This document shows, one piece after another, positions 3,298-5,796 of a stretch of 6,314 nucleotides of DNA. The notes beneath the pieces were generated by a model. The model was not told the DNA's origin. It made no database searches and saw only the letters and a program-made list of their open reading frames with translations. This stretch comes from a virus (Duplodnaviria > Heunggongvirae > Uroviricota > Caudoviricetes), in IMG/VR virus record IMGVR_UViG_3300014515_000026. The stretch is one strand, 5' to 3'. A program made the translations under genes and the position numbers. Position 1 is the first letter of the stretch, and each line of letters begins with the position of its first letter.

Positions 3298-5796
3298 CTA
3301 ACGNNNNNNNNNNNNNNNNNNNNNNNNNNNNNNNNNNNNNNNNNNNNNNNNNNNNNNNNNNNNNNNNNNNNNNNNNNNNNNNNNNNNNNNNNNNNNNNNN
3401 NNNNNNNNNNNNNNNNNNNNNNNNNNNNNNNNNNCCGTTCTGGCATCGAAGTCTATGGCTTTCCCCAGCTCAACGATTGTGCGTACATCGCGATCGTTGT
3501 AGTAACGCCACGGGCAGGGGATACCCTGTCGTTCGTATGAACGGCGTAAAATCACGTTGTCGAAGTTGGCTCCATTTCCCCAGACCTGAACAAAAAATTC
3601 ACCGGAGTTTTCGTCGATAAATTCCCGCAATTGCAGTAGTGCATCATCTAACGGAATTTCATCGGTCAGAATGGCAGATTGCGCCTCACGTGATTGCTTC
3701 AGCCACCATTTAATGACGTCACGATCAATGACTCCGCCAGCAGTATCCAGATCGATGGTCTTGCTAAATTCCGGTCCCATATCTCCGGTTTGTGGATCGA
3801 AAAATATTGCGCCTATTGAGATAATCGGGGCATCGGGATTTTTTCCCATGGTTTCAAGGTCGATCATTAGATGGTCACACGTCATGCTGGTGGATGTGAT
3901 AACGTGATGACCGTTCGCCATAATTAAGGGATCTGCCGTCTCGCCAGTTTCACTATCGCTGGCGTGGTCCTGAGCGCTGCCAGCATTCTCCTTGTGTGGA
4001 TGTTCAGCGCCTTCCATTTTCTCAGAATCGTCTTCCTGAACTTCAACCTGGTTCTTGTCATCGAATGTTTCCTGGTATGTTGCGTCGCCCATCACCGCGC
4101 CACAATCAGGGCAGTTGCCGCCACCGCTCTTACCGCAGGCGGTGCAGATCTTTTCCGGTTCCTGTTGCGCTACTGGTTCGGATTGTTTCGTTTCTGGCTC
4201 GTTTTGTTGCGTATTTGGGCTGTTTTGCTCCGCTTTCTGGTCGTTCTGTTCCGTTTCTTGCTGGTTCTGGTTCACAGAATCGCGGGTTTCAATCCCCTTC
4301 ACCCATTTCGGATCGTTCGGGTCGCTAATCCCTGCAACAAATTCACCACGCGATACTGCAAGCAGCTGATTGGCGTCAGGCTGGCTGATATTGGCTGCCT
4401 GCATAATTTTGTTTACTTCGTCAGCGGTAACTTTTACCGGCTCTGGTTGTGCGGTCGTGTCAGACGCGCCAGTATTTTGTTGTGAGCCTGAGTATGTGCC
4501 GTTTTTACGGGCAAAATATTCTTCTTTCGTGATTTCAGTAGCCCCGGTAGCCAGCGCCTTATCCAGACCTGAAAGTTTGTTTGCACGACCGTATTTTTCG
4601 CCATCCTTATCTGTGAAGAGGAAGTAGAACGGCCCCTCACGCTCTACAGATGGTTCGACTTCCACTTTGCATTCGGTTTTTTCGTTGTCCGGCATTGCCG
4701 TTTCCACTGCATCAGTTTCAGGTACTGGCGACGGGAGAGTATCAGTTGTGCTCTGATTTGTTCCTTCATCTTCAAATACGCCCTTTGTAGTCAGGTATTC
4801 AGTGATGTATTTGTTCAGTGCCACAGGGTCTTTGTGAATGTCGATCGGACGCTCACGGACAAGACCAAAAATAGTCTGACGGTTGTAGCGAACGGCATCA
4901 GGTTGTTTGCGCATTGATGCGGAAATGCGCTTCCAGTCTTCGCGATCCTTGTCGATAACTTCATTTTTTGCCCAGCGATGGATGCTGCCGTCAATGTTTC
5001 CGGCATTAATATCGCCAGGCCACAGAGCGTAGGCCAGTTCTTCATCCAGCGTTTTCCATGTCTGCTTGTATTCGCGACGAATGGCGGCAGTGGCGGGGTT
5101 GATTTTTCCTGCTGAGTTTTCAGTGTGCTGCCGGTTGACTCTGGCGCGGGCAAGATCAACAACAGACGTGTATTTCCTGGTTTCTTTGCGTCCGGCTTCG
5201 CGACGTTTTTTCCAGGTGCGTAATTCTGTCTGGATCTCAGGCCATTTTGCACCCGGCTTACATTTATGTTTAACCCACCCGATGGCGAGCAGCTTAAGCT
5301 CTGAATACATGACGTTAACTTCAGGCATTTTCATCAATGCCTCAACGATATGCCCGTCGAATGTTGCCATGTCCTCCTGCAACAATTCCTGTGCACTAAT
5401 CACCATATCAACGGTGATGTTTTCACATGTACCGAACTTAACCAGGACTGCGTTCTGTACTTCAAGGGACAGCTTGTCAAAATTGACGTTCATCGGATCG
5501 GATTCTGGTTCGACCGGAATAAAGGAAGCGGATTCCTCATCCCAGCGGTTTTCCTGCATATATTCGGTATCCCAGGAGTCTATAGCAGGGCGGGGCATGC
5601 CGGTTTTATCCTCGCAGACAAGAAATTTATAAGCGCAGTCCTGAGCAGCCGGATATTGCTCCAGGAATTGCCAGGTAAATTTGGCACGGGCGCGGCGTTC
5701 GTCACCGGCTTCAATGGCAGTGGCTACAGCAACTGCACCTTCTTCCTTTATTGCCTGTTCGTCCGGAATGGCGGCGCAAATAAAGACTTTACTCAT
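3298..5796 (-). CDS. Large prophage nuclease, RecE-like (exodeoxyribonuclease VIII family) with a C-terminal DEDD-type 3'-5' exonuclease domain; the 3' end is obscured by the N run
   Basis: A continuous 787-codon frame from the ATG at 5794-5796 (GAGG Shine-Dalgarno about 9 nt upstream) to the N run. The C-terminal region has DEDD exonuclease motifs: MIDLETMG (Exo I) and [13 protein letters not shown] (Exo II). A CxxC-x8-CxxC zinc ribbon is at 4102-4146 and a Q/E/N-rich linker at about 4153-4284. A middle segment, [29 protein letters not shown], resembles what I recall of RecE-family proteins. The stop at 3298-3300 applies only if the N run is true to length. Confidence 0.7.
   Translation of the reverse strand: [832 protein letters not shown]
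3304..3434. other. Run of 131 N: an assembly gap or masked sequence inside the 3' end of the nuclease gene
   Basis: Seen directly. The ORF track's 832-aa call reads through it as 44 X codons. Confidence 1.

Follow-up and report, generated by a model that had tools for sequence, protein, structure and literature searches.

Rac RecE of Escherichia coli K-12 joins an Exonuc_VIII domain (PF06630, E = 6.1e-98) to a PD-(D/E)XK 5'-3' nuclease domain (PF12684, E = 4.1e-28), and in recombineering the full-length protein behaves differently from the nuclease domain alone. T4 DexA, an exonuclease that degrades DNA in the 3'-5' direction, takes part in recombination-linked intron homing and in the scavenging of host DNA (PMC12153337). 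Its structure was solved by Kang et al. 2025 (PMC12153337), who found W152 and D169 to be needed for the cleavage of T4 DNA containing 5-hydroxymethylcytosine (5hmC). In lambdoid phages, DnaQ-like nucleases occur in recombination modules and near int, and four phages form a "Tritos" class that is rich in Chi sites and has a nuclease but no annealase, single-strand DNA-binding protein (SSB), or RecBCD inhibitor; for phages rich in Chi, recombination-dependent growth by way of RecBCD has been proposed (Zheng et al. 2025, PMC12315714). Here we analyze a gene at 3325..5796 (minus strand) of the virus record IMGVR_UViG_3300014515_000026, a stretch of 6,314 nucleotides (nt) that we call the window. 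As far as can be judged from the sequence, its product is almost certainly a RecE-related protein carrying a DexA-family DEDDh 3'-5' exonuclease domain.

The visible part of the protein gives a single Pfam hit, to PF16473 (Rv2179c-like 3'-5' exoribonuclease), over amino acids (aa) 642-784 (E = 2.6e-52; score 177.5 bits, cut-off 27 bits; model positions 2-148 of 177). When the domain is taken in its complete form from an orthologue, the match to this family extends over positions 2-177 (224.9 bits, E = 7.3e-67). The Exo I motif, D-x-E, lies in MIDLETMG at aa 644-651 (3844-3867), and Exo II, N-x2-F-D, is found as NGANFD within aa 738-750 (3547-3585); the acidic residues of the two align with D7/E9 and D119 of DexA. 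In the numbering of the orthologue, D646, E648, D746, H796, and D801 align with all five DexA catalytic residues. DexA (PDB 8KEL/8KEN), itself a member of PF16473, is the only solved relative that was found by sequence. The first-pass annotation of the window had described this domain as DEDD/DnaQ-like instead of the PD-(D/E)XK nuclease of RecE, and had expected a profile search to return both an Rv2179c-like exonuclease family and Exonuc_VIII. The description is confirmed, as is the first of the two expected families, and the visible protein has no PD-(D/E)XK (PF12684) hit at E <= 1. Exonuc_VIII (PF06630), on the other hand, gives no Pfam hit in the visible protein. The protein can be divided as follows.

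3325..5796, minus strand: whole exonuclease gene (open reading frame and translation, 823-aa orthologues, PHROG 2082)
5077..5796, minus strand: module A, aa 1-240, a YdfE-like N-terminus that is an alternative to the Exonuc_VIII domain of RecE
4762..5076, minus strand: module B, aa 241-345, helical, common to nearly all RecE-like proteins
4447..4674, minus strand: module C, aa 375-450 (EREGPFYF...), a small beta-beta-alpha-beta-alpha domain that only some family members have and that K-12 RecE lacks
4261..4443, minus strand: module D, aa 452-512, common with RecE aa about 452-492
4150..4272, minus strand: low-complexity linker rich in Q/E/N, aa 509-549, seen in the sequence
4057-4164, minus strand: module E of the module map, aa 545-580, conserved and containing the ribbon
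4102..4146, minus strand: Cys4 zinc ribbon CxxC-x7-CxxC, aa 551-565, the same ribbon as in Rac RecE
3910..4056, minus strand: acidic linker, aa 581-629, with 13 D/E in 49 residues, alignable with RecE to about aa 626
3436..3909, minus strand: DEDDh 3'-5' exonuclease domain, visible aa 630-787, PF16473, with Exo I at 3844-3867 and Exo II at 3547-3585
3304..3434, no strand: run of Ns, 131 nt, masking codons 788-823 and the stop, plus some 21 nt of the spacer that precedes xis

BLASTP aligns aa 279-626 with RecE aa 294-592 (37% identity overall, E = 1e-57); the two are near-identical around the ribbon, and the ribbon with its flanks corresponds to RecE aa about 452-592. Because Rac RecE has the same ribbon with near-identical flanks, the ribbon and the linkers are native to RecE, and the alignment places the swap point just before the RecE nuclease domain, at RecE aa about 592-606. 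The domain swap on a RecE-related protein that had been suggested from the window alone is supported by Pfam, by the RecE alignment, and by the architecture of K-12 RecE. The accompanying description needs some correction. The Q/E/N-rich linker is present, and so is the zinc ribbon, but the spacing of the latter is x7 and not x8, and it is no new fusion. Similarly, the term RecE-like body applies to aa about 240-626 and not to the first 240 aa, which are module A. Neither a canonical PD-(D/E)XK fold nor identical, well-characterized RecE orthologues were found.

The open reading frame starts with an ATG at 5796, has a GAGG about 9 nt upstream, and runs without a stop through 787 codons, to 3436. 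At the nt level the best match is E. coli MB06231 (96.6% identity), whose orthologous gene of 823 codons ends 110 nt past the position aligned with window 3435 and is followed by a 61-nt spacer and xis. Among species-representative genomes, an exact 50-mer search had no hits, and a scan with the protein yielded six loci, of which E. albertii was the closest at 89%. By this mapping the stop codon of the window should lie near 3325-3327, 62 nt before xis, and, since such a spacer is left, the N run retains its true length. In relatives the masked tail of about 36 codons is AIPFEGERHNALDDARYQAKYVSAIWQKLIPNQADF, which contains the Exo III motif H-x4-D; the motif reads HNALDD in the 823-aa orthologues, which have 94% aa identity to the visible protein. 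The end formerly listed for the gene, 3298, is an artefact, as the translation had been read through the Ns. The possibility that the N run hides an annealase can also be dismissed: 36 codons, a stop, and a spacer fill the 131 nt, and both the length of the run and the gene ends of the orthologues exclude a hidden recT. What the run covers is precisely Exo III, the stop codon, and some of the spacer, and it looks like masking and not like an assembly gap. The protein matches PHROG 2082 ("exonuclease", 823 positions) end to end with 1728.8 bits, a full-length score that makes a chance match no issue.

The gene is, on its substitution rates, under purifying selection. The ratio of nonsynonymous to synonymous substitution rates (dN/dS) is about 0.2 overall against four orthologues. 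Against the three more diverged ones, values of 0.04-0.16 are obtained for modules A, B, and C and for the DEDDh domain, those of module B being 0.09-0.16; in three of the four comparisons no module has a lower value than C (0.04-0.10), which gives 0.26 against E. ruysiae. The linker at aa 346-374 and the acidic linker give 0.44-0.95, and for the acidic linker (0.44-0.61) this corresponds to a relaxed constraint. A pseudogene or a gene in decay is therefore rejected, the more so as the catalogued phage Tritos carries an orthologue.

The N-terminal part of the protein belongs to a narrow family, since a search of 1.84 billion representative proteins with aa 1-640 produced only 250 hits at E <= 0.001. 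These hits were compared with phmmer to draw the module map. A profile search of a large protein database for N-terminal relatives returned almost exclusively partial sequences of E. coli. In an AlphaFold2 model (predicted local distance difference test, pLDDT, 82.4), module A consists of an alpha/beta domain (aa 1-95), a helical region (aa 105-205), and a disordered one (aa 206-240). Precomputed Pfam annotation places two newer families, PF27430 and PF27432, on the N-terminal part, the former being missing from a partial sequence that starts at aa 79. Module B falls within the BLASTP alignment (RecE aa 294-353) and has tblastn matches in the RecE genes of HK225, mEp237, Gifsy-1/2, and a Klebsiella phage. 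Module C is folded in the model of a relative (block pLDDT about 85).

The same scaffold is found with different C-terminal effectors. Among representative proteins of at least 450 aa, the N-terminus A is combined with a Rad52-like (Rad52/Sak-like) annealase in 18 proteins, with no effector in 7, with DEDDh in 4, and with PD-(D/E)XK in 3. The corresponding numbers for the RecE-type N-terminus are 9 with PD-(D/E)XK, 9 with no effector, 5 with DEDDh, and 1 with an annealase. One Enterobacter scaffold protein has a ParB-type helix-turn-helix as its effector. RecE-type N-termini with DEDDh are exemplified by locus L006 (PF06630 and PF16473). The reverse arrangement is found in a soil contig of a metagenome-assembled genome (MAG), where a protein of 987 aa (L013, 7001-9964) is 79% identical over aa 1-540 and has a PF12684 C-terminus; a RecT-family gene (9976-11013) follows immediately. 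This locus is the natural counterpart of the DEDDh version in the window. A contig labelled as a Veillonella parvula MAG (L012) carries dicB, ydfD, and an exonuclease gene that combines a RecE-type N-terminus with DEDDh (64% identity over aa 245-787); it is probably a mis-binned E. coli prophage contig.

Two kinds of short motifs recur among these proteins. The effector-less scaffold proteins P0126, P0137, P0252, P0255, P0256, and P0261 have in common a short C-terminal motif, ..QQQLTIAALQGLCANPA.., and many linkers of the family contain repeated motifs such as G-x-G-x-F-S-(I/V)-(D/E)-x-L and SNEGEKTE/SNEVEK. The C-terminal and the repeated linker motifs may be docking motifs.

The exonuclease domain also exists without the scaffold, and its family is present in 742 phage records. 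Stand-alone homologues with 55-60% identity are found in lambdoid phages (ST64B sb30, mEp460_4F5, mEpX2 gp31, and g341c). The one of mEpX2 (57% identity) is part of a canonical recombination module, in which an Erf annealase gene and an SSB gene come before it and the gene for the RecBCD inhibitor Abc2 comes after it. A more distant homologue (43% identity) lies in the P2-like Escherichia phage 899 (L019, 2498-3049), where it is accompanied by a 519-aa hypothetical protein between the replication gene and the portal gene. This position is presumably the moron/defence hotspot of P2. This hints that some stand-alone members of the DEDDh family act in defence.

The surroundings of the gene are those of a temperate phage. 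The other features of the window are the following.

1 to about 663, minus strand: 5' part of a P4-type integrase gene, with an arm-binding N-terminus, running off the left end of the window
825-900, minus strand: tRNA-Asn, adjoining the partial P4-type integrase gene
1001-1837, minus strand: mtfA
1892-1981, plus strand: tRNA-Ser(CGA), beside which the prophage is integrated
2034-3059, minus strand: int, the prophage integrase gene, downstream of xis
3059-3262, minus strand: xis, the excisionase gene, directly downstream of the exonuclease gene
3193-3200, plus strand: second Chi site, GCTGGTGG, in xis
3886..3893, plus strand: Chi site, GCTGGTGG, inside the exonuclease gene, antisense, just upstream of the DEDDh domain
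5876-6079, minus strand: ydfD-like DUF1482 gene, directly upstream of the exonuclease gene in the leftward operon
6076-6264, minus strand: dicB, upstream in the same leftward operon

The prophage genes belong to the leftward early operon of a Qin/Tritos-like lambdoid prophage at tRNA-Ser(CGA), in the order dicB, ydfD, exonuclease gene, xis, and int, and the exonuclease gene is the last DNA-metabolism gene of that operon. GenBank ON470583 has an annotation of this chromosomal locus, with the genes in the same order. The segment with tRNA-Asn, mtfA, and tRNA-Ser is flanked by two integrase genes, which suggests a further island beside tRNA-Asn.

That no annealase gene lies between the exonuclease gene and xis had been noticed from the window itself, and is borne out here: xis is only about 62 nt away, and relatives agree. 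Six loci of the DEDDh type are free of RecT, Erf, Gp157, and Abc2 over 6-7 kb. In phage Tritos, which has an 823-aa orthologue (88% nt and 85% aa identity) in the same gene order, the early leftward operon consists of cI, three small genes, dicF, dicB, ydfD, the exonuclease gene, xis, and int, and the annotation of record positions 22000-46360 contains no annealase, Gam/Abc2, NinB, or Rap. The prophage part of the window has 2 Chi sites on the plus strand for 0.18 expected, and the one inside the exonuclease gene is kept in 6/6 DEDDh-type relatives examined. In the prophage-oriented relatives (L001, L002, L006, and L010-L012), all Chi sites are on that same strand, and the right 24 kb of Tritos have 8 on the top and 2 on the bottom strand. 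As far as the visible 4.3 kb reach, the gene order and the lack of an annealase agree with the Tritos class, here as in relatives, and there are two same-strand Chi sites; the rest of the prophage is outside the window.

We propose that a DexA-type DEDDh nuclease, held on a RecE scaffold, trims 3' ends for the host RecBCD-Chi system, a combined reading of sequence and gene context to which we give about an even chance. The N-terminal scaffold, which is non-catalytic and has its modules joined by disordered linkers, would serve as a common adaptor for whichever end-processing effector it carries, bringing that effector to the same DNA structure or partner. In the DEDDh version, nucleotides would be removed from DNA 3' ends during lytic growth, and the trimming of 3' tails or flaps would turn phage ends into substrates for host RecBCD-Chi/RecA recombination; the exonuclease would then not act as half of an exonuclease-annealase pair. 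The view of the scaffold as a shared adaptor comes from its constancy among proteins that differ in their effectors. Given that both an annealase and a RecBCD inhibitor are lacking and that Chi sites lie on the same strand, 3' trimming for RecBCD is the likeliest job. In E. coli, helicases are kept from reloading at DNA ends by 3' tails, and such tails are removed by 3'-5' single-stranded DNA exonucleases (PMC5592934). The parts of the proposal are more tentative than the molecular identity. A physiological role in which the protein removes 3' tails or flaps and thereby permits the loading of host RecBCD is one that we consider possible but rather doubtful. Similarly speculative is the generalization that the RecE-type scaffold (A or R, B, C, D, and ribbon) is an adaptor with interchangeable effectors (5'-3' PD-(D/E)XK nuclease, 3'-5' DEDDh nuclease, Rad52-like annealase, or ParB-like DNA binder), the DEDDh version of which follows an annealase-independent, RecBCD-Chi strategy.

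Several observations weigh against this proposal. Two Chi sites in about 4.3 kb are only about twice the E. coli average, and the Exo III motif of the window is masked, so that it is taken from the orthologues alone. Fold searches with module A and the scaffold gave no informative structural match, and the adaptor role is consequently drawn from domain shuffling alone. The founding member of PF16473 is an RNase, which leaves room for an RNA substrate. According to Zheng et al. (PMC12315714), 3'-5' exonucleases usually depress homologous recombination. Finally, EcD, a DexA homologue of E. coli, has been reported as an anti-T4 defence (PMC12153337).

The last point leads to the alternative that survives best, although we consider it improbable: that the prophage uses the DEDDh nuclease for anti-phage defence, degrading the DNA of superinfecting phages such as modified T-even phages by the HREX strategy attributed to EcD. 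Kang et al. 2025 (PMC12153337) showed that EcD cleaves 5hmC T4 DNA and not unmodified double-stranded DNA, and that plasmid-borne EcD protects against T4. EcD and the protein of the window have the PF16473 family in common, the gene is kept in most E. coli genomes, often in several copies and under purifying selection, and a stand-alone homologue sits between the replication and portal genes of a P2-like phage. However, EcD is a different, stand-alone protein: the primers used for its cloning, given in the supplement, encode a MIDTET start, and identity of the two proteins is rejected. The sequence features of HREX (equivalents of DexA W152 and D169, and the loss of the tetramer residue D90) are also not found, the equivalent of W152 being a Tyr, the D169 loop being deleted or ambiguous, and the position of D90 being an Asp; with an identity of only 25-30% in the alignment, this negative carries little weight. 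The gene is at the far end of the early leftward operon, beside xis and int. In lambdoid phages this operon is repressed in lysogens, and no match to a sigma-70-like promoter was found on the strand of the gene between 3000 and 6314. Among the models of PADLOC-DB 2.0, only a generic CRISPR-associated DEDDh model is matched (E = 2.7e-5, 22.8 bits), and the scaffold is one found in recombination proteins.

Somewhat less probable still is an exonuclease directed at RNA or oligonucleotides, which would shorten or degrade RNAs or primers, or else the small nucleic-acid signals or products that host defences make. PF16473 is named after the exoribonuclease Rv2179c of Mycobacterium tuberculosis, the domain has a weak match to RNase_T (PF00929), and DEDDh enzymes often take both RNA and DNA. 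Yet the closest characterized relative, T4 DexA, is a DNA exonuclease, both the scaffold and the gene position match what is seen for proteins of DNA recombination, and nothing in the neighbourhood points to RNA metabolism. The scavenging of host DNA for nucleotide supply during lytic growth would extend to this protein the role that DexA has in T4 (PMC12153337), on the basis of the same catalytic family. It seems very unlikely, in that a scaffold of about 630 aa, common to RecE and the annealase fusions, is not needed for bulk degradation. Moreover, no lambdoid temperate phage is known to degrade the host chromosome.

A canonical RecE with a RecT hidden in the N run, or a decaying remnant, has practically no chance left: phage records often say "exodeoxyribonuclease VIII", the NCBIfam exonuclease VIII equivalog NF007259 matches in part, and K-12 has a truncated copy (ydfE), but that match, confined to model positions 243-603 of 877, scores 267.6 bits where the cut-off is 1269, the RecE alignment stops at aa 592, PF12684 and PF06630 are lacking, relatives end the gene 110 nt into the 131-nt run, and the reading frame is intact, with a dN/dS of about 0.2 and an orthologue in Tritos.

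The gene is abundant. A query of 2880 nt (window 3435-6314), comprising the visible exonuclease gene, the ydfD-like gene, and dicB, has matches in 4804 of the 5426 complete E. coli genomes, with a coverage of at least 80% in 3475 of these 4804; the median number of places per genome is two and the maximum ten. The protein is named "3'-5' exoribonuclease" or "exonuclease" at NCBI, and "exodeoxyribonuclease VIII" in many phage records. We regard it as an ordinary gene of prophages, abundant and already catalogued, and not as a system of a new kind. The earlier impression of an under-characterized function holds for the experimental side, as our search of the literature found no paper that tests the fused exonuclease protein or ydfE; it does not hold for the family, which is abundant, annotated, catalogued, and touched on in passing by Zheng et al. 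(PMC12315714). Few prophage genes of E. coli with a function that is only predicted are as common, and it is often mislabelled as "exonuclease VIII / RecE", a misleading name, since neither the polarity nor the fold that it suggests is right. Lambdoid phages that are Chi-rich and apparently RecBCD-dependent have no other recognizable DNA-transaction gene in their early leftward operon, and this makes it an obvious target for probing the RecBCD-dependence model. As a natural domain swap on the RecE scaffold, it provides, together with the versions that have PD-(D/E)XK and recT, a Rad52-like, or a ParB-like effector, a comparative probe of the N-terminal part of RecE. The adaptor role, if true, would offer a first way into the function of the N-terminal residues of RecE, roughly 600 in number, that pass as "dispensable", and a scaffold with interchangeable effectors is the most useful by-product of the analysis.

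The protein can be compared with several known systems. The treatment of the Tritos nuclease in the accessible text of Zheng et al. (PMC12315714) does not dissect the architecture of the protein or the shuffling of scaffold and effector. The same source describes "RecE-2" proteins that have no nuclease domain, and lists ZF40 with an anti-RecBCD function only. Gp07 of the Pectobacterium phage ZF40 is a fusion of the scaffold with an annealase and resembles the protein of the window in modules A and B, such fusions often having C as well; like the exonuclease gene, the ZF40-type fusions belong to the early leftward operon, where a few genes separate them from xis and int downstream. We found no description of scaffold-Rad52-like annealase fusions in the literature consulted, and fusions such as ZF40 gp07 are probably the "RecE-2" proteins of Zheng et al. 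The pseudogene ydfE of the K-12 prophage Qin (b1577; L016, 5079-5999) is 86% identical over aa 1-256 and has the same neighbours, dicB and ydfD, with an integrase gene downstream. Unlike the exonuclease gene, it is interrupted by IS2E about 256 residues in, so that modules B-D, the ribbon, and the exonuclease are missing; as a result of this interruption K-12 is without a DexA-type domain. T4 DexA belongs to the same Pfam family and has the same five catalytic residues, with 25-30% identity, and several of its loops are missing from the exonuclease domain of the window. DexA (227 aa) and EcD stand alone, whereas here the domain ends a chain of 823 aa. With Rac RecE, the protein has in common the position of its gene upstream of xis and int, a long, linker-rich build of multiple modules, and, among these, modules B and D, the zinc ribbon, and the acidic linker. 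The two differ at their ends, where the protein of the window has a YdfE-like module A and a DEDDh (PF16473) domain, and in what follows their genes, which is recT for RecE and xis for the exonuclease gene.

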